A stretch of 63,853 nt of DNA, filler included. It is 8 parts of 8 records of this genome, joined end to end, with 100 filler letters (N's around TTAATTAATTAA, not from the genome) between each part and the next. Parts side by side here need not be neighbours in the genome. Positions count along the whole stretch, not along the records: positions 16,510 to 24,838 come from SRR31156797_12104; 7 more parts are not named here. The stretch is one strand, 5' to 3'. Under the pieces are notes generated by a model. That model was not told where the DNA came from, did not search any database, and saw nothing but the letters and a program-made list of their open reading frames with translations. Positions 16,510 through 63,853 of this stretch are shown in pieces. The stretch's first letter is position 1. Every line of letters starts with the position of its first letter. Both the position numbers and the translations under genes were made by a program.

Positions 16510-16710
16510 GGGCTGGAGCAGGTCCCAAGGGTTTGGCTGCTCGGCAATGCGGTGGTACGTGAGCAGGGTTACCCGATTTTATGTTTTGGCGTCGTGAGAC
16601 AGTTTGTGTCCCTGTCTTTCGTGGGCGCAGGCCAAAATATATAATCGGGCGAGGAGATCTGTTCCTAGTAGGAGAGGACTGGAATGGATCAATCAATGTT
16701 TCCAGTTGTT
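16510..16710 (+). ncRNA. Divergent 23S rRNA-derived segment (about E. coli 2525-2700: H91, A-loop H92, H93, sarcin-ricin loop) with two complementary insertions; 5' end lost at contig edge
   Basis: Colinear GGGCTGGAGCAGGTCCCAAGGGTTTGGCTG..GGTACGTGAGC.GGGTT..CGTCGTGAGACAGTT..GTGGGCGCAGG..GAGGAGATCTGTTCCTAGTA.GAGAGGAC.GGAATGGA; similarity stops at about 16710; no 23S 3' end or 5S follows. Confidence 0.8.
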
Positions 16711-16975
16711 CCTCTATCGTTCTTTTAATAAATTCCTTTTCGGGCTGGTTTTATTGTCATAAACGCGGATCTTACCGAACAAGCTCAGTATCTAGATCTA
16801 TTGTCGGCTCCTCAAACCATTATCTTTCCAGTGTTACACAGATTTGATGATTTCTACCATCGGGTTTCTTTATATTTTAGGCCACAATTTTTTTTCTTTC
16901 TTTTCATTTCCTTTTGTTATACTCCAACCTTAGTCAAATTCTTAAAATTAAAGCAAATCTGATTGGATCATCAAG

Positions 16976-19900
16976 ATGCAGATTCTGGATAATATTAGTG
17001 ATCTTTGGGGAGAGGATTTAAAAAAGGCAATCGAGCCCGGCGCAAGAATAAAAATAGCGGCTTCCTATTTTTCCATTTATGCCTTTGAGGCATTGAAAGA
17101 AGAGTTAGAGCAGGTTGAGTCGGTGGAGTTTTTATTTACCTCCCCCACCTTTATTCCCAATGAAGTCACCGATAAAATATCCCCGGAAAGAAGGGAATTT
17201 TATATCCCAAAACAATTAAGGGAGCAAAATCTTTACGGAAATGAGTTTGAAATTCAGCTTAAGAATAAATTGACTCAGCGTGCCATTGCCAGGGAATGTG
17301 CAGACTGGATAAGACGGAAAGCCATTTTTAAATCCAACTCAACCAATGCTGCCATGCAGGGATTTGCCTGCATTAACAGTCAAACCTCCGATACCGCGTA
17401 TATGCCGGTCAAAGGATTTACCGCTGTAGACCTCGGGTATCAAAAAGGCAATGCGGTTTCAAATTTCATCACTAAATTCAACGATGCCTCCTCCACAAAA
17501 ACCTGGCTGACCCTCTTTGACCAGATGTGGGAAAATAAGGAAAAGGTCCATACGGTTACGGACAGTATTTGTTCCCATATTGAATCCGTTTACCGGGAGA
17601 ATTCCCCGGAGAAAATTTATTTTCTGATGCTTTACAATATATTCAATGAATTTTTGGAAGATTTGAGCGAAGATGTGCTGCCCAATGATCTGACCGGATA
17701 TAAAAAATCCATAATATGGAACCAACTCTTTAATTTTCAGCGGGATGCTGCAACCGGTATTATAAATAAACTTGAAAGCTATAATGGATGCATTCTTGCG
17801 GACAGTGTGGGCCTGGGCAAAACATTTACAGCTTTGGCGGTGATCAAGTACTATGAACTTAGGAACCGTTCCGTTCTGGTGCTGTGTCCAAAAAAACTGG
17901 CAGATAACTGGCTTAATTATAACCGCCCCTTAAAGACGAATATCCTGGCCAAAGACCGGTTCAATTACGATGTTCTCTGTCATACAGATCTTCAGCGTAC
18001 CAAAGGTGAGTCATTTGGAACCCAGCTAAACCAGGTTAACTGGGGAAATTTCGATCTTGTGGTCATTGATGAATCCCACAATTTTAGAAATAACGAAGCG
18101 TTTAAAGAAAAAGAGACCCGGTATCAAAAGCTCATGCGGGCAGTCATCAAGGACGGTGTCAAAACCCGTGTGCTCATGCTTTCCGCCACACCGGTCAACA
18201 ACCGGTTTAACGATTTGAGAAATCAGTTGGCCCTGGCTTATGAAGGGAAGTCCGACACACTGGGGCAACGATTGAAACTAGAGTCAAGCATTGAAGAGAT
18301 ATTCAGACAGGCCCAGACGGCTTTTAACACCTGGTCTAAACTCCCTGCTGAGCAAAGAACCGCCCAAGCCATTCTTGATTCTCTGGATTTTGATTTTTTC
18401 GAGCTTCTGGACAGTGTCACCATTGCCAGATCACGACGGCATATTGAGACCTATTATGATACCAGCGACATCGGCACCTTTCCCACACGAAACAAGCCTT
18501 TGGCATTTCGCTGCCCATTGACCCACAGGGCGGATATCATCGGCTTCAATGACATTTTTTCACAGCTTTCCCTTTTAAAGTTGTCTGTTTATGCCCCTGT
18601 CAATTACATCCTGCCCAGCCGGATAAAAAAATATGAGGACCTTTATGATACGGCTGTGGAAGGGGGGACAGGCCGGCTGAGACAGGCGGACAGGGAAAAA
18701 AGCCTTCAAAGCCTGATGACCTGCAACCTGTTAAAGCGCCTTGAAAGCTCTGTTCAGTCCTTCCGCTTGACCCTGACAGCCCTGAAAGAAAATATAGATA
18801 ATACCCTTAACCAGATTGGAAAATTTAAAGATTCCGGAAACCAGGGGCTTTTTCAGGGGGACATGGCATCCTTGGAGGGGTTGGAAAATGAAGATGAAGA
18901 TCTCTTGGGCCTGGACAACTTCATGATCGGAAAAAAGGTGAGAATCAGTCTTGCCGATATGGATATTCAATCCTGGGAATACGATTTGAAATCCGATCTG
19001 GCGGGAATATCAGAACTTTTATTTGAGATGGGTAAGATCAGTCCCTTGGATGACGCCAAACTCCAGCATCTGAAACAGCAGGTTCAAGGTAAAATAGAAA
19101 ACCCCATAAATCCGGCCAACAAAAAGGTGATCGTTTTTACCGCCTTTGCCGATACAGCGGATTATCTGTATGAACATTTATCGGAATCCTTTCATGGCCA
19201 GGGCATTGAAGCAGCAAGGGTCACCGGCAGGGGAAATCCAAAAACAACTTTAAAAACAGGGATTGATTTTCAATCCATACTGACCCTGTTTTCTCCTGTT
19301 TCAAAGGAGAAGAAATTAATCATGCCCGACGAGCCCGGTGAAATAGACCTGCTCATTGCAACGGATTGTATATCGGAAGGGCAGAACCTTCAGGACTGTG
19401 ATTATCTGATCAACTATGACATTCACTGGAATCCGGTCCGTATTATCCAGCGGTTCGGCCGTATCGACCGCATCGGCTCCCCCAATGCCGCCATTCAGCT
19501 GGTCAATTACTGGCCGGATATATCCCTGGATGAATATATCAACCTCAAGGAGCGGGTGGAAAACCGTATGGTCATCGCCGATGTGACGGCCACCGGGGAT
19601 GATAATGTCCTGTCTGCCAAGGCCAATAATGTGGCATACAGAAAAGAGCAGCTCCGTCGGCTCAAGGATGAGGTCATTGAGCTGGAAGATGTTAAAACCG
19701 GGGTCAGTATCACAGACCTGGGACTGAATGATTTTCGTATGGATTTGCTCGACTATATGAAAGATAACGGTGATATAGGCGCCTATCCCAAAGGATTGCA
19801 CGCCGTGGTCCGGGCTGATCCTGAAAAAGGCCTGATTCCCGGGGTCGTATTCACCTTAAGAAACCGGAATCCGGGCCTTCATCATCATCTTCACAATAGG

Positions 19901-20251
19901 CTTCACCCCTATTACCTGATTTATATTGATCATGAAGGTCAGATCATAATGGATCATACCCGGGTAAAACCCCTTTTGGATCTGGCCCGCATGGCCTGCA
20001 AGGGGGTGTCAGATCCTGTGATGAACGTCTGCAGGGGATTCAACAGGGAAACCTTTGACGGCAGGAGTATGGACACCTATTCAGACTTGCTCAATCAGGC
20101 GATTTATTCCATGGTCCGTCTCAAAGAAGACAAAGAAGTGGATGCCCTGTTTGCCGATACCCGGGTATCATCAAAAACAACCGGATTTGACGGCCTGGAT
20201 GATTTTGAACTGGTTTCTTTTATTGTGGTACGGGAGGTGGATAATGGATAA
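16976..20251 (+). CDS. SNF2-family helicase with N-terminal PLD-like domain, associated with type III R-M
   Basis: LADSVGLGKT, VIDESHNFRN, LSATPVNN, ATDCISEGQNLQ, QRFGRIDRIGS. Confidence 0.92.
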   Translation: MQILDNISDLWGEDLKKAIEPGARIKIAASYFSIYAFEALKEELEQVESVEFLFTSPTFIPNEVTDKISPERREFYIPKQLREQNLYGNEFEIQLKNKLTQRAIARECADWIRRKAIFKSNSTNAAMQGFACINSQTSDTAYMPVKGFTAVDLGYQKGNAVSNFITKFNDASSTKTWLTLFDQMWENKEKVHTVTDSICSHIESVYRENSPEKIYFLMLYNIFNEFLEDLSEDVLPNDLTGYKKSIIWNQLFNFQRDAATGIINKLESYNGCILADSVGLGKTFTALAVIKYYELRNRSVLVLCPKKLADNWLNYNRPLKTNILAKDRFNYDVLCHTDLQRTKGESFGTQLNQVNWGNFDLVVIDESHNFRNNEAFKEKETRYQKLMRAVIKDGVKTRVLMLSATPVNNRFNDLRNQLALAYEGKSDTLGQRLKLESSIEEIFRQAQTAFNTWSKLPAEQRTAQAILDSLDFDFFELLDSVTIARSRRHIETYYDTSDIGTFPTRNKPLAFRCPLTHRADIIGFNDIFSQLSLLKLSVYAPVNYILPSRIKKYEDLYDTAVEGGTGRLRQADREKSLQSLMTCNLLKRLESSVQSFRLTLTALKENIDNTLNQIGKFKDSGNQGLFQGDMASLEGLENEDEDLLGLDNFMIGKKVRISLADMDIQSWEYDLKSDLAGISELLFEMGKISPLDDAKLQHLKQQVQGKIENPINPANKKVIVFTAFADTADYLYEHLSESFHGQGIEAARVTGRGNPKTTLKTGIDFQSILTLFSPVSKEKKLIMPDEPGEIDLLIATDCISEGQNLQDCDYLINYDIHWNPVRIIQRFGRIDRIGSPNAAIQLVNYWPDISLDEYINLKERVENRMVIADVTATGDDNVLSAKANNVAYRKEQLRRLKDEVIELEDVKTGVSITDLGLNDFRMDLLDYMKDNGDIGAYPKGLHAVVRADPEKGLIPGVVFTLRNRNPGLHHHLHNRLHPYYLIYIDHEGQIIMDHTRVKPLLDLARMACKGVSDPVMNVCRGFNRETFDGRSMDTYSDLLNQAIYSMVRLKEDKEVDALFADTRVSSKTTGFDGLDDFELVSFIVVREVDNG

Positions 20252-20927
20252 TCCCTCAACAGATCATAGACCCCGGCGCTGGAAATTTCCCGAAGCCACA
20301 CGGTTCGATAAAATCGTGGCCAAGGATAAAATACTCAGGCAGACCCCTGCCTCCCCTGCTGAAAAGAAATTGTTCAGGCAGCAGATCCGAAAAATTCGCT
20401 GCTCCCATGAAATCACCGCTGATTCAATGAATATCGACAGCAGTTTCCAGGTGCCTAAAATCCTGGTCATCCAGTTGACGTCGATTGTCCCTGAGCCGGA
20501 GGTAAAAGTTCTTTCCACCGTTGACAGGGCCTTTGGGGTTCCTGTGATTTTTGAAATCCATCACAAGGATCAATCAAGGTATGCTGCAAGCTGCCGCCGC
20601 CGCACCAAGGCGGATAAAGGTTCGTGGACCTTCAGCCCTTATTTTTGGGGCCCATGGATGGACAAGAATATTGAAACCTTTCCTGCGCCCCTTGCCTTGA
20701 GCCTGGATATCCTTTATGAAAAGCTTTTGACACGCCTCTTGCCTCTGCAGCAAAGAGAGCAGGAAGACTTTGTAGGTCTCATGGAGCGGTGGGAAAACAT
20801 ACAGATCCTGAACCGGGAAATGACAAGGCTGGAAGCCAGAATACAACGGGAAAAGCAGTTCAACCGCAAGGTGGCTTTGAACCGGTCTTTGAATCAATTG
20901 AAAAAACAGATGGAAAAGAGTTGCTGA
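20244..20927 (+). CDS. DUF4391 family protein
   Basis: C-terminal EKQFNRKVALN; standard position between helicase and Mod; RBS GGAGG. Confidence 0.88.
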   Translation: MDNPSTDHRPRRWKFPEATRFDKIVAKDKILRQTPASPAEKKLFRQQIRKIRCSHEITADSMNIDSSFQVPKILVIQLTSIVPEPEVKVLSTVDRAFGVPVIFEIHHKDQSRYAASCRRRTKADKGSWTFSPYFWGPWMDKNIETFPAPLALSLDILYEKLLTRLLPLQQREQEDFVGLMERWENIQILNREMTRLEARIQREKQFNRKVALNRSLNQLKKQMEKSC

Positions 20928-21067: not shown

Positions 21068-23038
21068 GTGATCGTGGAACCCTTAAAAATGCATACCCCG
21101 GATTTTACGGATGAAAATATTGAAAACCTGGCCAAACTCTTCCCCAATTGTGTCACGGAGTCGGAAGATGAAAAGGGCCGTTTAAAGCGATCCCTTGATT
21201 TTGACCTGCTCCGCCAGGAATTATCCCCCCATATCGTGGAAGGCCCCAAAGAGCGGTATCATCTGAATTGGCCGGGTAAAAGACAGGCGCTGCTGGCCGC
21301 CAACGCCCCCATTGCCAAAACCCTTCGCCCCTGCCGGGAGGAAAGTGTGGATTTTGATACCACGGAGAATATTTTCATTGAAGGGGATAATCTGGATGCC
21401 CTCAAGCTTCTCCAGGAAACCTATCTGGGCAAGGTCAAGATGATCTATATTGATCCCCCCTATAATACGGGAAAGGATTTTATTTATTCGGACCGGTTTG
21501 CCAGGTCCAGTCAGGATTATCTTCTGGATTCCGGGCAGAAGGATGAACAGGGCAATCGGCTTACGGCCAATACCGAGTCCAACGGCCGGTTTCATTCGGA
21601 CTGGCTTTCCATGATGTATTCCCGGTTGAAGCTTGCCAGAAATTTGCTCCGGGATGATGGGGTTATTTTTGTTAGTATTGATGAAAATGAATTTGATAAT
21701 CTACTAAAGATTTGTAACGAAGTTTTCGGTGAAGATAATTACGTGGGAGCTATTTCATGGAAAAATTGTACAGACAATAATCCTACCAATATTGCAATGG
21801 AGCATGAATATATTGTCTCTTTTTCAAAAACCAAGGATCATATTTCAAAGGTATGGAAAAGCTCTGTTTCGGACGTTAAAATGATATTAGTAGACAAGTT
21901 TAAAGAACTCTCGAATAGAATAGATGATACTGATTTAAAAGAAAAAGAGTATAAAAAATGGTTTAAGGAACATAAATCAGAATTATGGCCTCTCGATGGT
22001 TATAAACACATAGATTCAGGTGGTATCTATGCCGGTATTCGTGGAGTTCATAACCCGGGAAAAGACGGTTATCGATACGATGTTATTCATCCAAAAACGA
22101 ATAAGCCGTGTAAAGAGCCTCTTATGGGTTATCGTTTTCCTAAGGATACGATGATGAAGTTATTATCCGAAGGAAAAATAATTTTCGGTGAAGACGAGTC
22201 AAAAATAATCGAACTTAAGTCTTATGCTCAAGATTATCAGGAAAAATTGTCTAGTGTATTTGAACTCGATAATAGATCTGGAGCTTACGATGTAAGAAAG
22301 TTATTTCCAGGTACAAAATCATTATTTGGAAATCCTAAACCAATAAAATTATTAGAAAAATTTGTTTCTTTAGTTACTAAGAATGGAGAGATAGTTTTAG
22401 ATTTCTTTTCAGGTTCATCCACAACCGCCCACGCAGTAATGCAACTTAACGCAGAAGACAAAGGCAACCGCAAATTCATCATGGTTCAATTACCGGAAGC
22501 CTGCGATGAAAAATCAGAAGCCTTTAAAGCCGGATACAAAACCATTGCCGAAATCAGCAAAGAGAGAATCAGAAAGGCGGGAAAGAAAATCAGGGAAGAC
22601 AATCCCGAAACAGCCGAAAATCTTGATACCGGATTCAGGGTATTCAAAATCGACTCCAGCAATATGGCGGATGTGTTCTATACCCCGGATGAACTGGATC
22701 AGGGACTGCTGCCCCTGGCAATGGAAAACATCAAGGAGGGCAGAAGTTCCGAGGATCTTTTGTTCCAGGTGCTTCTGGACTGGGGGGTGGATCTGTCACT
22801 GCCCGTTGAAACGAAGACCCTCATGGGCCGGGAGGTCTTTTTTGTGGACAGTAATGCCCTGGCGGCCTGTTTTGAGAAAAAAGGAGGAATTACCGAGGAT
22901 CTGTGCAAGGAATTGGCTCAATTTAAGCCGTTGCGGGTGGTGTTCAGGGATTCGGGATTCAAGGACGACAGTGTGAAGATCAATGTGACCCAGATTTTCA
23001 AACTTATGTCTCCTGAGACAGAGGTGAAAACCATATGA
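21068..23038 (+). CDS. mod: Type III restriction-modification methyltransferase (Mod)
   Basis: IYIDPPYNTG and VLDFFSGSSTT; AT-rich central target-recognition region. Confidence 0.95.
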   Translation: MIVEPLKMHTPDFTDENIENLAKLFPNCVTESEDEKGRLKRSLDFDLLRQELSPHIVEGPKERYHLNWPGKRQALLAANAPIAKTLRPCREESVDFDTTENIFIEGDNLDALKLLQETYLGKVKMIYIDPPYNTGKDFIYSDRFARSSQDYLLDSGQKDEQGNRLTANTESNGRFHSDWLSMMYSRLKLARNLLRDDGVIFVSIDENEFDNLLKICNEVFGEDNYVGAISWKNCTDNNPTNIAMEHEYIVSFSKTKDHISKVWKSSVSDVKMILVDKFKELSNRIDDTDLKEKEYKKWFKEHKSELWPLDGYKHIDSGGIYAGIRGVHNPGKDGYRYDVIHPKTNKPCKEPLMGYRFPKDTMMKLLSEGKIIFGEDESKIIELKSYAQDYQEKLSSVFELDNRSGAYDVRKLFPGTKSLFGNPKPIKLLEKFVSLVTKNGEIVLDFFSGSSTTAHAVMQLNAEDKGNRKFIMVQLPEACDEKSEAFKAGYKTIAEISKERIRKAGKKIREDNPETAENLDTGFRVFKIDSSNMADVFYTPDELDQGLLPLAMENIKEGRSSEDLLFQVLLDWGVDLSLPVETKTLMGREVFFVDSNALAACFEKKGGITEDLCKELAQFKPLRVVFRDSGFKDDSVKINVTQIFKLMSPETEVKTI

Positions 23039-24153
23039 GCAGGCAACAAATAGAATCGGGAAAAGGAGAAATTCTTCTTTACCGGAGTGCTGACGGCCAG
23101 GTCCGGCTGGATGTCCGGCTGGAAAATGAAACGGTCTGGCTGACCCAGAACAACATGGCAGAGTTGTTCAGGACCACCCAACAGAATGTCAGCCAGCATA
23201 TTATCAGTATATATAAAGAGGGTGAGCTGGACCCTGAGGGAACTCACAAGAAATTCTTGTCAGTTCGGCAGGAGGGAAAAAGATCCGTGCGGCGGCACCT
23301 GGAATATTATAACCTTGATATGATTATTTCTGTTGGATACCGGGTAAAAAGCCAGGTCGCCACGCGGTTCCGGATCTGGGCCACCCAAAGGCTCAAGGAA
23401 TACATCATCAAAGGTTTTACCATGGATGATGAGCGTTTAAAAAATCCACCGGTAAAGGATTCTTTGGTTCCGGATTATTTTGATGAAATGCTGGAGCGGG
23501 TCCGGGATATCCGGGCCAGTGAGCGGAGGATGTATCTTCGGGTCAAAGATATTTTTGCCATGGCAGCCGATTATGAGCCCGGCTGGAAGCAGACCACCGT
23601 GTTTTTCAGTACCATCCAGAATAAACTTCATTTTGCTGCCACAGGCCAGACAGCCGCCGAGCTGATACAGGACCGGGCGGATCATTTTCTGCCCAATATG
23701 GGGCTGAAAAGCTGGAAAGGGGATGTGGTCCGGAAAACCGATGTGGTGACAGCCAAAAACTATCTTAGGGAAGAAGAGATAGACGGGCTGAACCGGATTG
23801 TGGTTATGTGGCTGGATTTTGCAGAGGATCAGGCAAGAAGACGCAAACAGATTTTTCTCAAGGACTGGGAGACAAAGCTGGATGATTTTCTGAGGTTCAA
23901 CGACAGGGAGGTTTTGACCCATTCAGGATCTGTGACCAGGAAAGCGGCCGTTGAATATGCCAGAGACGAGTATGATCAATTTGAAATCATCCGCCGCAAG
24001 CAGCAAGAAACACTGGGTGAAAAAGAATATGTCAGAGAGCTGGAACGTATGGCTGAAAAACTGCCCGCTCCATCCAAGGGGCAAAAGAAACCAGTTAAAC
24101 AAACACTTGCAAAGCCAGGTAAAAAGCCCGGTAAGAAGAAAGATCCCTCATGA
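23035..24153 (+). CDS. Virulence RhuM family protein
   Basis: [38 protein letters not shown]. Confidence 0.92.
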
Positions 24154-24838
24154 AGCTCAAATTTAAGAAACAGCCGTTCCAGACCCGTGCCGTGGAGGCG
24201 GTGGTTGACTGCTTTACCGGACAACCCATGGCCCAAAAAACTGATTATAGAATTGATCCGGGAGTCCGTAAAAAAGATGGCCATGGATATGTCCAGACAG
24301 AAATGGATGAAGAGAAAACCGGGTTTAGGAATGCTCAGATTCGATTGCTGGAACAAGATCTTTTGAAAAATATTCAGGAGGTCCAGCGCCGCCAGAACCT
24401 TCCTGTCTCCGAAGCACTTGTGAAAACACAAGTTTCTTCATTGAACCTGGACGTGGAGATGGAGACCGGTACCGGCAAGACCTATTGCTATATCAAAACC
24501 GTTTTTGAGCTGAACCGCAGGTTTGGCTGGACCAAATTCATTGTGGTGGTGCCGAGCATCGCCATCCGGGAAGGGGTATATAAAACCCTTGAGATTACGG
24601 CAGAGCACTTTCAGGAAACCTACGGTAAAAAGGCCAGGTTTTTCATTTATAATTCAAAACAACTCCATCATCTGGAGAGCTTTTCCTCGGATGCCGGGAT
24701 CAACCTCATGGTGATCAATGTCCAGGCCTTTAATTCCAGGGCAAAGGACAATAGAAGGATTTATGAGGCGCTGGATGCGTTTCAGAGCCGCAGACCCATT
24801 GATGTGATTATTAACCCGGCAAAAAAACAGGCGACAAA
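24150..24838 (+). CDS. res: Type III restriction endonuclease Res subunit (3' truncated)
   Basis: [35 protein letters not shown]. Confidence 0.93.
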
Positions 24839-58714: not shown

Positions 58715-59553
58715 CAAGGTGCAGTTTTAATTGTAAGCCAAGCTCTCGCACTTTTTGTGTAACTTGCAATTGCTAAGAAAATCAATCCACCACCTAAAGC
58801 AAATACAGAAACTGGTAAATCGTAGTTATCTCCAACAAAATATCCAACTAAAAGTAAGGCTAGAAAAACCCAAGAAAATTTAAATAGAGTTTTGTTTTTT
58901 AATACTTCATCTGGATTTTTTAGTAAACTCACATCTATTTCTCTTGGAATATCTTTTCGTAAAAATACCCATAAAAAAGAGATAGTAACTACTGTACTTA
59001 CTACATAAGGAACAAACATTTTTGATAAATACTCTAAGAATCCTATATCAAAATAGTTAGCTGTAACTATATTTGTAAGGTTTGAAAATACAAAAGGTAA
59101 AGAAGCAGAATCACTAATAAAACCACCTGCAAGTAAAAAGGCTAAAATTGTTTTTGCATTTAGTTTTAGTATTCTCATTTTTGCTAATAAAATTGGCGTT
59201 AAGATTAGTGCTGCTCCATCATTTGCAAAAAGTGCAGAAACAAAACTTCCAAGAAGTAGTGCATATACAAACATTAGATGTCCGTTTCCACGTGAGAGTT
59301 TTGCCATTTTAATTGCACACCATTCAAAGAAACCAATCTCATCTAAAACCATTGAAAGAATGATAATTCCAATAAATGCTAACGTTGCATCCCAAACAAT
59401 ATCACTTACAACTAATACATCCTCAAAACTAACAACCCCTGCTATTAGTGCAACTATTGCGCCTATAACAGCCGTTGTTCCTATTTGTAAACCTTTAGGT
59501 TGCCAAATAACAAATATTAAAGTAATCAAAAAAATTGAACTTGCTAATATCAT
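58715..59553 (-). CDS. arsB: Arsenite efflux pump ArsB (3' truncated)
   Basis: VIWQPKGL.IG, ALFANDGAALILTP, SNLTNIV. Confidence 0.93.
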
Positions 59554-59574
59554 AAATTTTCCTATTTTAAAATC

Positions 59575-59600
59575 AATACATCAAGATATCTTGATGTATT
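59575..59600. promoter_or_regulatory. ArsR-type operator, perfect 26-bp palindrome AATACATCAAGATATCTTGATGTATT
   Basis: Immediately upstream of arsB; near-identical to the site at 60344. Confidence 0.8.
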
Positions 59601-59619
59601 TTAGTAAAAAAAAGAACTC

Positions 59620-59976
59620 CTAAGAGTCCTCTTCCATATCTAATACTTCTTGTTTAAGAGTATAAATAAAAGTATCCACTTCTAACTCATCATATCTCTC
59701 AACGGCTACAGGAGTTCTTTGAAACTCTTGTCCTTCAAACTCATCTAAATAATCCCAGTTATCTATCAAATTTGATGAATAAAATAAATACCCATGAATT
59801 GTATCATCACCTGCATCTAATCTTATTCCTGGATATCCCATTGAAGCTGACCATCCAGCATCAATTAATCTTCCTTTTACTGTTGCAGGTACAAATTTCC
59901 CTACAATATTTTCCAAAACATGTCCATTTGGGCAGTTTGGCATAAGTGTTCCATAAACAAATAGTGTTTCTGTCAT
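59620..59976 (-). CDS. Gamma-glutamylcyclotransferase (AIG2-like) family protein
   Basis: LFVYGTLM, GYPG, LDEFEG. Confidence 0.9.
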   Translation of the reverse strand: MTETLFVYGTLMPNCPNGHVLENIVGKFVPATVKGRLIDAGWSASMGYPGIRLDAGDDTIHGYLFYSSNLIDNWDYLDEFEGQEFQRTPVAVERYDELEVDTFIYTLKQEVLDMEEDS

Positions 59977-60284
59977 TATAAATTACAAGCCTTTGTTAAA
60001 ATTGGAAGCTCAATATCTAAAGTCATAATCTCTTTTATTGAAGCTTGTCTAAACTCATCAAGGGGAGTTCTAACTGAATAATAAGCCCATCGCCCTTCTC
60101 TATCTACTCTTAAAAATCCTGCTTCTTTTAGTATCTTTAAGTGCCTTGATAGTCTTGATTGAATCATATCAAAAGAGTTTTCTAAGTCACATACGCAACA
60201 TTTTCCATGGATATTTAAAAATTTTAATAATTTTACTCTTGTCTCATCATTTAATGCTGATGCAGACTTTAAAAAAATATCCAT
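59976..60284 (-). CDS. arsR: ArsR/SmtB metalloregulator
   Basis: ALNDETR, CCVCDL, QSRLSRHLKILKEAG. Confidence 0.92.
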   Translation of the reverse strand: MDIFLKSASALNDETRVKLLKFLNIHGKCCVCDLENSFDMIQSRLSRHLKILKEAGFLRVDREGRWAYYSVRTPLDEFRQASIKEIMTLDIELPILTKACNL

Positions 60285-60343
60285 AAAAAATGTTCCTTTT
60301 AGTATTTTACTTCTTCGATTTTAAAACTATAGCAAAAAAAACT

Positions 60344-60371
60344 TAATATATCAATATATCTTGATATATTA
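60344..60371. promoter_or_regulatory. ArsR-type operator, near-perfect palindrome TAATATATCAATATATCTTGATATATTA
   Basis: Upstream of arsR; one mismatch from perfect dyad. Confidence 0.75.
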
Positions 60372-61046
60372 GATTACATCTTTTTGAAACTCCTCAATAC
60401 CTACAATTCTTCTTTCTAATCTACTTTTTAAACTATCTTTATAATCTTGTGCTAAAGAGTCTAATTTTAAAAGTTCTAATACTTCTTTTTCATATTTTAT
60501 AGGATTTAGATAACAATTAGATATAAACTCTATTGAATACTTTGTATTAACTCTTTTTTCTAAATTGAAGCTATCACTTTTTGAAATCTTGCCCTCTTTT
60601 ATAGTTCGTAGTAAAAATCCTGTTTTACACTCTTGAACTAAAGTTTTTGTTAGATTTTTTATTCCTGTAACTTTTGAAATAACAAAACAAGGAACCCTTG
60701 GCTGAGAAACTTCCAATAATGTTTCACCACAAGAAAAGATATCTCCAATATAAATATCATTGTCTGAACAATTTTCCAATGTAATATTTTCACCAAAAGA
60801 GCACTCTTTTAATTTAATATCAAATTTCTCTTCTAAAAAGTCGTATGAACCTTGGGAATAAATACAAACAGCTCTATCTACTCCTCCATGATTTTTCTTA
60901 TCAACTTGCTCATCATTTTTTATACCAAGTTTAGAAACATGAATTTCATTTTGTGCTTCTTTTTTATAAGCACTATTTAGTATTCTATTACTTAATTTGT
61001 ACTCTTTTGATTTTCCTACAAAAAGATTTTTTATTTCAAAATGCAT
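60369..61046 (-). CDS. MOSC domain protein (YiiM-like)
   Basis: HGGVDRAV, FGENIT, VSQPRVPC. Confidence 0.9.
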   Translation of the reverse strand: MHFEIKNLFVGKSKEYKLSNRILNSAYKKEAQNEIHVSKLGIKNDEQVDKKNHGGVDRAVCIYSQGSYDFLEEKFDIKLKECSFGENITLENCSDNDIYIGDIFSCGETLLEVSQPRVPCFVISKVTGIKNLTKTLVQECKTGFLLRTIKEGKISKSDSFNLEKRVNTKYSIEFISNCYLNPIKYEKEVLELLKLDSLAQDYKDSLKSRLERRIVGIEEFQKDVI

Positions 61047-61152
61047 CTATTTCCTTTAAAAATGAAATATTACAGTTTAATTTCTTACTATTAATTTACA
61101 TCTATTTAAACTTATTGTATACTTCAATAATAACTTAGCTAGGAACCAATAT

Positions 61153-63594
61153 ATGGCATTAAATGCAATAAAAATAATTTTTACTTTTATAATACTATTA
61201 ACTTGCTCCTATGCAAACAACTCTTTAAGACTATCTAATAACTTAAAATCTAATATTGATATTTTAGCAAATCAAGTTGAATTATACTTTCAAACAAATA
61301 CAGGGAAAAGAGAAGTCTATATTGCTAACTTATTTAAAGTATATTATGAAAACTATGACAAGATAGCTGCTTTTGAAATAAAAAATGACTTTAAGACAAT
61401 ATATAGCTCATTTAGAGATGATGAATCAATGAGCCTTTTTAAAGATGTTGAATTATCTCTAAATTTTGACAAGACTGATGAGTATTATGAAAAAGAGATA
61501 CTAAATTTAAAGGGACAAAAAATAGCTACTTTAGTAGTATATTTTAAAAAGACAATCAACTTTTCAAAGCAAGAGCTTGAATACTTACAAAATAAAAAAG
61601 TATTAAGAGTTCAAAATGATGCAAGTTTACCTCCATATAACTTCAACGAAAATGGAATCCCTACAGGTTATGCAATAGACTATTTAGAACTAATTGCAAA
61701 TGAATTAGCACTAGAACTAGAGTTTGTCCAAGGGAAATGGGACGACTTTATGAATATGCTAGAAGACGAAGAACTTGATTTAATGATTAATGTTTTAAAG
61801 TCAAAACAAAGAGAAGAGAGATTCCTTTTTTCAAATAAAGCTTTTGTAACTTCACCTCTAGCTATGCTAACTAGAATTGAGCACAAAAATGTTCACACTT
61901 TCAAAGAGATGGAAGGTGAGACTATGGCTCTTGTTGAGGGATACCACAGTTATGATAGAGTAAAAAGAGATTATCCTAAAATTGATGTTTATCCAACACC
62001 TGACACAATTACTATGATGAAAGCAGTTTCACAAGGAAAAGCAGATGGAGCATATGGTTTAAAATCAGTTTTAGATTACAACATAAACAAACACTATTTA
62101 TCAAACCTAAAAACAATGAGAAATACAGATGATGATGAGTTTGGCTTCTATTTTGCATACAACAAAGAAAACCTTATTTTAAAAAGTATTATACAAAAAG
62201 CAGAAAAACTAATCTCAAAAAAAGATATCGAAGAGTTAAATAACAAATGGTTCCAAAAATTTAAAGAGACAAAAAAAAGAAGTAAAAACTACCTTTTTAC
62301 TCAATCAGAAATATTCTATTTAAATAAAAAAGGTGCAATAACAATGTGTATTGACCCAGATTCTGCACCTTTTGAATTCCTTACTAGAAAAGGAGAATAC
62401 TCTGGAATTATTGCAAACTTTATGGAGACTATGTCAAAAAACTCTGGTATAAAGTTTGAAATACTTGGTAAAGAATCATGGAGTTCATCTTTAGATGCGG
62501 TTAAAAATCAATTGTGTGATATCTCACCTTTTACTGTTCAAACTGCTGAGAGAACTGAGTACCTTAACTTTACAAAAAAATACTTCACTTTTTCAAATGT
62601 AATTGCAACAAAAGATTCAGAGATTTTTATTGACTCTTTAGATGATATAAAAGATAAGAAAATAGCTGTTGTGAAAGATTATGCTACAAAAGATTTTATA
62701 AAAAGAAAATACCCTAATATAAAAATTGTAGAAGTTGACAATACTTTAGAAGGATTAAAAAAAGTAAGCAAATCAGAAGTATTTGCACATGTAGGACTTT
62801 TTCCTGCAGTAGCTCAAACACTTCAAAAGAACAATATTCAGAATGTAAAGATTACAGGAAAAACTTCTATTGATATTGAAGCTAAGATTGCTATTAGAAA
62901 TGATGAACCTATTTTACAAAGTATTTTAAACAAAGCAATTAATTCTGTAAAAGAAGAAGAGAAGGAACAAGTACTTGATAAATGGCTTACAATCATTAAA
63001 GAAGAAGGATTAAATACAAAACTATTTATACAGATAATTACGGCTATAGTAGTCATCTCTGCACTTATTATCTTCTTTGTTATTTACAATTCAAATAAGA
63101 AATTAAGAAGATTGTCTCAAACAGATAAATTAACTAATGTGTACAACCGATTTAAGCTTGATTCTTTAATTGAAGAAGAGATGAATAGAAGAAAAAGATA
63201 TGGACAAGAATTAAGTATTGTTCTTATTGATATAGATTTCTTTAAAAAGATAAATGATATTCACGGCCACTTATCAGGGGATAAAATACTTCAAGAGTTT
63301 TCTAAAACTATAAAAAGAAATCTTAGAGAAACAGATCATTTTGGAAGATGGGGAGGAGAAGAATTCCTTGTTATTTTACCTAATACAAATAGCGAAGAGG
63401 CATATATTCTTGCTGAAAAACTAAGACAAACTATTGAAACTGCTAAGTTTTATAAAGATATAAAAGTAACTGCTAGTTTTGGTATCGCACAATGCGAAGA
63501 TATAGATAGTAATAAATGTTTAAATAATGTAGATAAAGCTTTATATGAAGCTAAAAATAGTAATAGAAATTGTGTGAAGATTTATAAAAAGTAG
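61153..63594 (+). CDS. Diguanylate cyclase with two periplasmic substrate-binding domains
   Basis: Two PBP repeats (PPYNF, APFEF), TM, DIDFFKKIND, RETD I-site, RWGGEEF. Confidence 0.93.
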   Translation: MALNAIKIIFTFIILLTCSYANNSLRLSNNLKSNIDILANQVELYFQTNTGKREVYIANLFKVYYENYDKIAAFEIKNDFKTIYSSFRDDESMSLFKDVELSLNFDKTDEYYEKEILNLKGQKIATLVVYFKKTINFSKQELEYLQNKKVLRVQNDASLPPYNFNENGIPTGYAIDYLELIANELALELEFVQGKWDDFMNMLEDEELDLMINVLKSKQREERFLFSNKAFVTSPLAMLTRIEHKNVHTFKEMEGETMALVEGYHSYDRVKRDYPKIDVYPTPDTITMMKAVSQGKADGAYGLKSVLDYNINKHYLSNLKTMRNTDDDEFGFYFAYNKENLILKSIIQKAEKLISKKDIEELNNKWFQKFKETKKRSKNYLFTQSEIFYLNKKGAITMCIDPDSAPFEFLTRKGEYSGIIANFMETMSKNSGIKFEILGKESWSSSLDAVKNQLCDISPFTVQTAERTEYLNFTKKYFTFSNVIATKDSEIFIDSLDDIKDKKIAVVKDYATKDFIKRKYPNIKIVEVDNTLEGLKKVSKSEVFAHVGLFPAVAQTLQKNNIQNVKITGKTSIDIEAKIAIRNDEPILQSILNKAINSVKEEEKEQVLDKWLTIIKEEGLNTKLFIQIITAIVVISALIIFFVIYNSNKKLRRLSQTDKLTNVYNRFKLDSLIEEEMNRRKRYGQELSIVLIDIDFFKKINDIHGHLSGDKILQEFSKTIKRNLRETDHFGRWGGEEFLVILPNTNSEEAYILAEKLRQTIETAKFYKDIKVTASFGIAQCEDIDSNKCLNNVDKALYEAKNSNRNCVKIYKK

Positions 63595-63613
63595 GAATTT
63601 TTCCCTACCTTTT
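63587..63613. terminator. Bidirectional terminator between convergent genes
   Basis: AAAA-GTAGG-loop-CCTAC-CTTTT. Confidence 0.55.
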
Positions 63614-63621
63614 ATTATTTA

Positions 63622-63853
63622 TTATAATTCGTTTTTAATTCTTTCAACTAAAGACTCAACTGTAAATCCAAACTCTTTAAATAGTTCACCAGCTGGTCCA
63701 GAAGCACCGAATGTATCCATTCCAAATACTTCGTCAGCAAATTTATAATACTCTAAACCTCTTGCAGCTTCAACAGCAAATACTTTTGTAGAAGGCTTGA
63801 TGATTTTTGAGATATACTCTTTGTCTTGCTCAACTAAAAGGTCAAAACAAGGA
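63622..63853 (-). CDS. tkt: Transketolase C-terminus (runs off the window)
   Basis: PCFDL..AVEAA..GMDTFGASGPAGELFKEFGFT. Confidence 0.88.
   Translation of the reverse strand, partial: PCFDLLVEQDKEYISKIIKPSTKVFAVEAARGLEYYKFADEVFGMDTFGASGPAGELFKEFGFTVESLVERIKNEL

Follow-up and report, generated by a model that had tools for sequence, protein, structure and literature searches.

A 23S rRNA-like fragment with two complementary inserts beside defense genes: a probable decaying duplicate of an rRNA operon end

What does a fragment of 23S rRNA sequence with two mutually complementary inserts represent at the edge of a set of defense genes? The fragment lies in a stretch of 63,853 nt (hereafter the window) that consists of eight small contigs joined by seven linkers, each a run of N, TTAATTAATTAA and another run of N. 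GC content across the window (1-63853) ranges from ~0.27 (58715-63853) to ~0.63, and the bin may mix organisms; the contig under study (16510/16511-24838) stands at ~0.42-0.49, and the contig to its left at ~0.6 compared with ~0.45 for the studied one. The 5′ end of the contig falls inside the 23S-like sequence, and the 5′ part of the fragment is lost at the artificial join, as the preliminary description had stated. That description had seen in the inserts a matched pair, and had proposed either an rRNA-derived decoy, sensor or guide RNA, or the scar of an element that targets 23S genes.

A decayed 23S fragment with two copies of one motif

We aligned the fragment to the Rfam model LSU_rRNA_bacteria with Infernal, which gave a 5′-truncated match of 35.2 bits (E = 3.6e-9) over model positions 2551-2925 (16511-16876). 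The gathering score of this model is 50, and at that level Rfam returned no match anywhere in the 63,853-nt window. With blastn, an intact 23S gene from a related genome (G049) covered 16510-16709 at 75.9% over 203 columns. Past 16709 the blastn similarity ends, close to the limit of about 16710 set initially; the Infernal alignment is weak there, and nothing convincing follows after ~16718. The changes at normally invariant positions that had been listed hold against both the intact G049 23S and the Rfam consensus: GGCTGCTCGGC vs. GGCTGTTCGCC and GAGCAGGG vs. GAGCTGGG in the A-loop and other conserved positions, and TAGTAGGAGAGGACT vs. TAGTACGAGAGGACC in the sarcin-ricin loop, neither of which keeps its conserved bases. 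A continuous 3′ end followed by 5S is also missing, the window having no 5S or tRNA, and a tRNA and tmRNA search of the window found none. Its score below the gathering level and the changed loop bases agree with the earlier opinion that this is not a working rRNA; it is most likely an old copy of the long-left, two-motif type described below. A distant blastn search of a plasmid collection with 16511-16975 returned 177 records, all ordinary 23S genes with at most 38% query cover and none at 80% or more.

The two inserts form the sole inverted repeat detected in 16511-16980. Infernal, blastn and the inverted-repeat search together uphold the first account of a 23S-derived stretch with two complementary 19-nt inserts. 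The arms are 89% complementary, spaced 40 nt apart around what is presumably the helix 93 hairpin, and a recount of their pairing gave the same 17 Watson-Crick pairs, one G.U and one mismatch as before. RNA folding of 16560-16660 yielded -37.6 kcal/mol (z = -3.34), and none of 200 shuffled sequences folded as well. Arms 1 and 2 are copies, in opposite orientations, of one 18-nt quasi-palindromic motif, CCYGATTWTATRWTTTGG, which also recurs elsewhere; they are thus not a matched pair made for each other. Both copies fit the degenerate consensus at 18/18 positions while the flanking rRNA-like DNA is ~12% diverged, which, in a weak, post hoc test, may hint at constraint or at recent insertion.

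Two simple classifications were rejected. A MITE would account for the inverted repeats, but the 40-nt core runs parallel to 23S throughout, the 18-nt motif alone recurs elsewhere, and no direct repeats flanking the arms, as a target-site duplication would leave, were found. An inverton does not fit either: the enclosed segment is in the forward direction in all five aligned two-motif units, and no recombinase is present among the genes of the window contig.

To learn whether reads support the fragment we used Logan contigs from one DNA run of one sample, which is probably the source of the window and hence does not provide independent evidence. Among the sequencing runs listed, this DNA run was the sole match, and no RNA run contained the stretch. 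A 180-nt contig matches 16577-16756 exactly and spans arm 2 with both of its junctions, which shows arm 2, the sarcin-ricin-loop-like part and the transition into unique DNA to be real. Support is poorer on the left: 16552-16606 is matched only by a low-depth contig (5.7) with two differences, which represents a rare third form with non-rRNA DNA to the left of 16552. A second haplotype in the same sample (depth 50.4, against 43.8 for the window form and 86 downstream) has neither arm 2 nor the sarcin-ricin-loop-like part (Table 1). The population is thus polymorphic at this locus, where the contig ends on meeting rRNA repeats. It could still be asked whether the contig end is a chimera threaded through rRNA reads of several organisms. 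Indeed, the contig begins in rRNA-like sequence, its first 33 nt are nearly those of a true rRNA contig of high abundance (depth 1162), no Logan contig of this sample covers 16544-16551, and the contig graph branches at 16577 and 16606. Yet the exact 180-nt contig, made by an independent assembler, crosses arm 2 into unique DNA, the decayed bases at 16540-16553 cannot derive from true rRNA reads, and unrelated genomes are built alike at this kind of locus, among them G049 with three two-arm units on closed-looking contigs. We give an assembly artefact almost no credence, and for the core of the feature the exact contig and the relatives exclude it.

The genes that follow the fragment (Table 1) are not tied to it. 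The closest relatives of the SNF2 protein (73-80% identity) come from Desulfobacter, Desulfopila, Desulforhopalus, Desulfobacula and Desulfospira records, and none of 80 loci with SNF2 relatives carries rRNA-like DNA or the hairpin repeat described below, so that an origin of the fragment linked to SNF2, and with it a tie to the SNF2/type III restriction-modification (R-M) genes, was rejected.

Table 1. Positions of the features in the window and of the related loci discussed in the text
Feature	Position or size	Strand	Basis or content
Artificial contig join	16410-16509	.	N, TTAATTAATTAA, N
Decayed partial 23S 3′ copy (rrn-3′ unit of the long-left, two-motif type); contig edge cuts left end	16511-16718	+	Infernal, blastn, alignment with 14 related units
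Motif copy 1 (arm 1), core CCCGATTTTATGTTTTGG	16572-16590	+	Replaces ~5 nt after GGGTT, Rfam model ~2612-2617
23S-colinear 40 nt: helix 93 hairpin (presumed) and next strand	16591-16630	+	38/39 aligned positions identical to intact G049 23S
Stretch absent from second haplotype (120 nt), 8 other letters instead	16607-16726	.	Contigs of the same sample
Motif copy 2 (arm 2), reverse complement CCCGATTATATATTTTGG	16631-16649	-	Replaces ~6 nt at Rfam model ~2654-2663
Sarcin-ricin-loop-like stretch, 2 changes at otherwise conserved positions	16666-16680	+	Rfam consensus, G049 23S
HKD nuclease + SNF2 helicase; neighbor, outside the unit	16976-20251	+	Pfam; PADLOC HKD+Snf2, 6e-125
DUF4391 protein; true start uncertain, listed ORF overlaps SNF2 end	20055-20927	+	Pfam
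Type III R-M methyltransferase	21068-23038	+	Pfam, PADLOC
RhuM family protein (PADLOC PDC-S05), between type III mod and res	23035-24153	+	Pfam, PADLOC
Type III restriction enzyme, N-terminal part; contig end cuts gene	24150-24838	+	Pfam, PADLOC
Hairpin repeat copies	L107:2595-2844 (G001); also L105, L109-L115, L116-L120, L126, L133, L134		
G055 island	about 10 kb		Type I R-M, HTH genes, MqsA/SocA antitoxin
G069 island	9.7 kb		Type I R-M, YgjP, MqsA/SocA
G078 island	10 kb		IS3 transposase, Schlafen/AlbA, type I R-M, RadC
G097 island	2.3 kb		MqsA/SocA
G113 island	6.2 kb		CheB/CheR fusion + histidine kinase
G153 island	1.6 kb		Carbonic anhydrase
G049	two loci		Island absent between operon and unit

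One motif at fixed rRNA-derived sites

The motif is built of two ~7-nt imperfectly inverted ends that flank an AT-rich center. We searched 161 genomes of the GTDB family that includes Desulfobacter, Desulfobacula and Desulfospira MAGs for the motif alone, allowing at most one mismatch, and obtained 132 matches in 54 genomes, against 17 for a reversed-pattern control. Among 20 sampled sites (19 genomes), 8 lie in a hairpin repeat, 6 in 5S copies and 4 in 23S copies, one closes an island that is not followed by rRNA DNA, and one is isolated. Within dead partial duplicates of the 3′ end of rRNA (rrn) operons, the motif replaces 4-7 nt at two places in 23S and at one place in 5S.

An exact 24-mer over the joint of arm 1 and helix 93 led to four metagenome contigs (L001-L004), each of which contains a 23S 3′ fragment with the insert at the arm-1 place, ordinary rRNA at the arm-2 place and an intact sarcin-ricin loop; their upstream non-rRNA sequences differ, and two of the four are linked to 5S genes. 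The pattern of insert plus helix 93 was present in 4/161 family genomes and in 5/401 genomes of a class sample, all five from the same family, adding G040 and G123, while the motif-only search added G078, G097, G113 and G153. In total, the first 23S site is occupied in L001-L004, G005, G040, G055, G069, G078, G097, G123 and three times in G049. At the second site the motif is in reverse orientation in the window and in the three G049 units (four units from two sources), and in forward orientation in G113, G078 and G153; half of the 14 units that reach this site have the motif there and the other half ordinary rRNA sequence. In 5S copies the motif is found at two offsets 6 nt apart, and in the first G049 unit it replaces 7 nt of the 5S copy. 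The 23S copy of G153 runs from the site-2 motif directly into the 5S copy, as if two direct copies of the motif had recombined and the DNA between them had been lost.

The intact 23S gene of G049 (2963 bits) has plain sequence at both sites, and the 5S of G001 is also ordinary; the prospect that the same inserts belong to an intact 23S gene is not borne out in G049. Likewise, the doubt whether any homolog keeps the paired inserts is answered by the three G049 units. Because homologs keep them, the feature is inherited, which does not by itself show an RNA function. As suspected from the beginning, the inserts did not arise by random decay, being copies of one family-wide motif at fixed sites. 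The "scar of an element targeting 23S genes" is the nearest of the options offered at the outset.

The hairpin repeat is an imperfect hairpin of ~150 nt, multicopy in several family genomes, with inverted ends (GTGTTTGGACG ... CGTTCAAACAC), no ORF, no Rfam family, and the motif at its tip. One genome, G001, has 18 motif copies, of which we examined 14: 10 are at the hairpin tip and 4 in 5S-type copies, the latter being tandem copies of a 5S 3′ part plus terminator downstream of rrn operons. G011 has 18 matches (2 copies examined) and G009 has 12 (1 examined). Across genera, a small stem beside the motif in the hairpin repeat varies in a paired fashion. No Y1 transposase adjoins the motif copies checked, those listed for G001, and viral contigs gave 0 matches for the motif plus helix 93 pattern and 0 for the 5S plus motif pattern.

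Does the pairing of the two arms matter as such? Counting G.U, 18/19 cells pair in the window, 16/19 and 16/18 in G049, and, with the two motifs in direct orientation, 16/19 in G078 and 11/16 in G113. Direct orientation does not abolish the helix, since these direct copies still pair once G.U is counted. In the alignment of five units (19 pairs) the arms do not covary, since 225 of 500 shuffles equaled the observed pairing, and two pairs were changed on both sides compared with 1.3 in shuffles. A near-palindromic motif implies that any two copies can pair, whatever their orientation, and the complementarity of the inserts follows from the presence of two opposite copies; it is a by-product rather than a purpose-built helix. 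On this alignment, there is no conservation of the pairing as a helix, and covariation does not back it.

Units and islands at the ends of rRNA operons

The partial 3′ copies, referred to here as units, share a layout in six genomes (G055, G069, G078, G097, G113 and G153), in which an intact rrn operon is followed by a variable island, the unit and then host genes, such that, as at att-type loci, a partial 3′ copy sits on the far side of the island. The islands carry mostly R-M and toxin-antitoxin genes: type I R-M genes are present in G055, G069, G078 and G029, other cargo including MqsA/SocA antitoxin, RadC, Schlafen and Vsr genes; a Vsr gene lies immediately to the left of the unit in both G040 and L001. 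In G029 (L140:1-2200) a module of type I R-M, RadC and motif lies away from any rRNA DNA. In G049 the 3′ end of an intact operon is partially repeated twice in tandem directly behind it, and a second operon, on another contig, is followed by one more unit; all three units have both arms in a window-like arrangement. In one of them (L090:10217-11600) arm 2 is split by an rve-type IS with an 8-nt duplication (AAATTACA). Units stand behind full 5S genes in 2/4 cases in G049 and, for 5S-type units, in 3/4 cases in G001, one locus of which has IS21 and another transposon between two units.

Scanning of the island ORFs with Pfam revealed no recombinase other than IS transposases. A genome-wide check for tyrosine recombinases (PF00589, the family to which this check extends) gave 44 matches in 5 genomes, with 0 on unit contigs and 0 within 200 kb of a unit.

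In G069, 79 nt of the 5S 3′ part recur as a direct repeat at both ends of the island. Between G055 and G069 the operon end with its terminator is 95.5% identical and the island right end with the motif 89%, with nothing in common beyond the unit, as expected if the element supplies the new 3′ end of the operon. Short-left units have their left edge 27 nt before the motif whatever adjoins them, with at least five different left neighbors. Identity among L001, L003, G005 and G055 breaks sharply at the motif, from 91/104 positions over the 26 nt on its left side to 160/160 over the 40 nt on its right. The homology between the G078 and G029 islands halts at the last base of the motif, the G029 module having no adjacent rRNA DNA, which favors a precise, motif-centered joint over plain homologous recombination. 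Units end at many different truncation points. The G055 unit differs from the 23S of the same genome by paired, stem-preserving changes, indicating that the source of its right part was a working 23S from a different lineage or copy. Several units keep an intact sarcin-ricin-loop sequence, which a recent origin from working rRNA explains.

Some long units may add working 5S genes. Full-score 5S sequences (104.9 and 101.9 bits) are found behind a dead 23S 3′ copy in G113 (L136:12798-13533 and G113:C2:319389-319787). A ~60-nt sequence (… GAATTCAAAA … CCCTGTTAGT …) common to G113 and G153 sits directly upstream of their long units (L121:100-157 and, on the reverse strand, L127:120-175).

How the units may have arisen

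We consider it probable, at about 0.6, that the window fragment is a nonfunctional, decaying duplicate of an rrn 3′ end which bounds a recombination hot spot and has been invaded by a family-specific mini-repeat. In this model, an island bearing an rrn 3′ stretch would recombine with an rrn operon, the conserved rRNA DNA serving as homology arms, by a Campbell-type single crossover or by a double crossover of incoming DNA. The product would be an intact operon followed by the island and a displaced or duplicated 3′ fragment, with the operon gaining a new 3′ end and terminator. The displaced 3′ part would constitute a direct repeat, open to decay, to truncation as further elements arrive and to insertions, and the 18-nt motif would have entered such dead rRNA copies at three preferred places. 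While the unit family, its common motif and sites, the succession of operon, island and unit, and the absence of both recombinases and covariation are direct observations, we infer the recombination route as well as the insertion of the motif, now or formerly, by a process of its own, and we are less sure that the route is homologous rather than site-specific. Several facts count against this model. The defense genes of the window lie to the right of the unit while in the six relatives the island lies to its left, and the left contig edge hides any rrn operon upstream; pairing potential is kept in all five two-motif units (11 to 18 of 16 to 19 cells); and neither decay nor homologous recombination explains why the motif recurs at three fixed sites, one of which takes it in either orientation, while 5S copies have it at two offsets.

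Those observations that point to the motif itself bring up another possibility, namely that the unit is a cis-acting attachment module whose motif is the core site of a putative recombinase encoded elsewhere in the genome, which would dock and swap integrase-less islands at rrn operons, the rRNA-like flanks being remains of the target. Such a mechanism would account for the end of the G078/G029 homology at the final motif base, for the break of identity exactly at the motif in the four short-left units, for the one left edge common to units with at least five different neighbors, for the site-2/motif/5S fusion of G153 as the expected deletion product of direct copies, for both orientations at site 2, as a symmetric core allows, and for islands without a recombinase of their own. 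However, ordinary recombination would also be expected to delete DNA between 18-nt direct repeats and to leave a break of identity at heterology, no candidate recombinase was found and no tyrosine recombinase lies near any unit, the intact rRNA genes have no motif-like target that could serve as attB, and up to three motif copies per unit, together with multicopy hairpin tips, are unlike att sites. We therefore regard the attachment module as possible but doubtful. The 18-nt hairpin might also stand alone as a module, be it a minimal mobile palindrome or a core site for a putative trans-acting recombinase, that prefers three rRNA sites and shows up just in dead rRNA copies because it is lethal in live ones. 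Together with the rrn-3′ duplicate it would enable integrase-less defense islands to dock at rRNA operons and to move between them, with the cell's best-conserved DNA as a general landing pad; this combination seems to us improbable.

It has also to be considered that the unit is transcribed into an RNA mimicking rRNA, acting as a decoy, sponge or sensor, for instance one that counters rRNA-cutting toxins or serves rRNA-binding proteins, with motif hairpins that would disable ribosome assembly or bind a partner protein. The better-than-shuffled folding of the arms (z = -3.34) would be in line with this, as would the persistence of units across genera beside defense and toxin-antitoxin genes, the intact sarcin-ricin loop of several units, the G.U pairs tolerated by the motif on the sense strand, and the pairwise changes between genera in the stem near the motif of the hairpin repeat. 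But the intact loops are accounted for by recent origin from working rRNA, the arms do not covary, the second arm is missing from 7 of the 14 units that reach its site, and truncation points are many and different. Moreover, the window copy itself has lost the conserved loop bases and coexists with a haplotype devoid of 16607-16726, including arm 2 and the sarcin-ricin-loop-like part, and no promoter-like or terminator-like site was detected in 16511-17100 by a consensus scan, the only method applied. An rRNA mimic is thus very unlikely, and the decoy, sensor or guide RNA of the preliminary description is not supported, in view of the absent covariation, the relatives without arm 2 and the second haplotype.

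A decaying duplicate at a hot spot has partial parallels among known systems. Genomic islands at tRNA and tmRNA genes leave displaced 3′ gene fragments and attL/attR direct repeats, and resemble our loci in the order of intact gene, island, partial 3′ copy and host DNA, and in that the element seemingly brings a new 3′ end with its own terminator. In contrast, the target here is the end of an rRNA operon, the repeats extend from ~80 to 750 nt, no integrase is present, and an unrelated 18-nt motif marks the inner edge of the repeat. Cassettes at hot spots, which homologous recombination exchanges by way of conserved flanks, such as the "minimal mobile elements" of Neisseria and the immigration control region of E. 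coli, likewise hold varied, R-M-rich cargo between the same flanks with no recombinase of their own; here, however, one flank duplicates the other, from which we infer that a naive rrn operon could be the landing site, insertion creating the duplication.

The motif, for its part, recalls the small palindromic repeats of REP/REPIN and MITE-type elements, being a short, imperfect, family-specific palindrome present in multiple copies and both orientations, with a ~150-nt hairpin carrier that has inverted ends. It differs from them in that only 18-20 nt are inserted, 4-7 nt of target are replaced with no duplication seen, the sites are fixed and rRNA-derived, and no Y1 transposase stands beside the listed G001 copies. 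Intervening sequences (IVS), group I introns with homing endonucleases and R2 also insert at defined places in rRNA genes, whereas our motif turned up in truncated, dead copies alone and was absent from those intact 23S and 5S genes that we examined, is too short for an intron, and occupies sites at which a working ribosome should not tolerate it. As for orphan or partial rRNA genes, the units are similarly truncated, mutated and below the family threshold, but form a conserved, positioned family with a common inserted motif. Among the papers listed by full-text literature searching, none dealt with such islands or repeats at rRNA operon ends.

If the model of a decaying duplicate at a hot spot is correct, rRNA operon ends in this Desulfobacter/Desulfobacula family would be docking points for integrase-less R-M and toxin-antitoxin islands, flanked by a degenerate duplicate of that same 3′ end. 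No DNA is more conserved than that of rRNA, so these islands could cross species by recombination alone, a simple and overlooked route for the spread of defense genes; and because contigs break at rRNA, draft assemblies would lose them. For annotation, the lesson would be that rRNA-like fragments with paired inserts of "designed" appearance can be relics with copies of a local repeat.

A separate small puzzle is why one mini-insert should turn up both in a multicopy hairpin repeat and at three fixed places derived from rRNA. The motif may be a tiny mobile palindrome that only dead rRNA copies tolerate, a recombinase core site, or a templated insertion produced by template switching; part of it resembles, at the level of a half-site, the arm of a Xer site. 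Finally, in G044 two tandem rrn operons lie ~2 kb apart.
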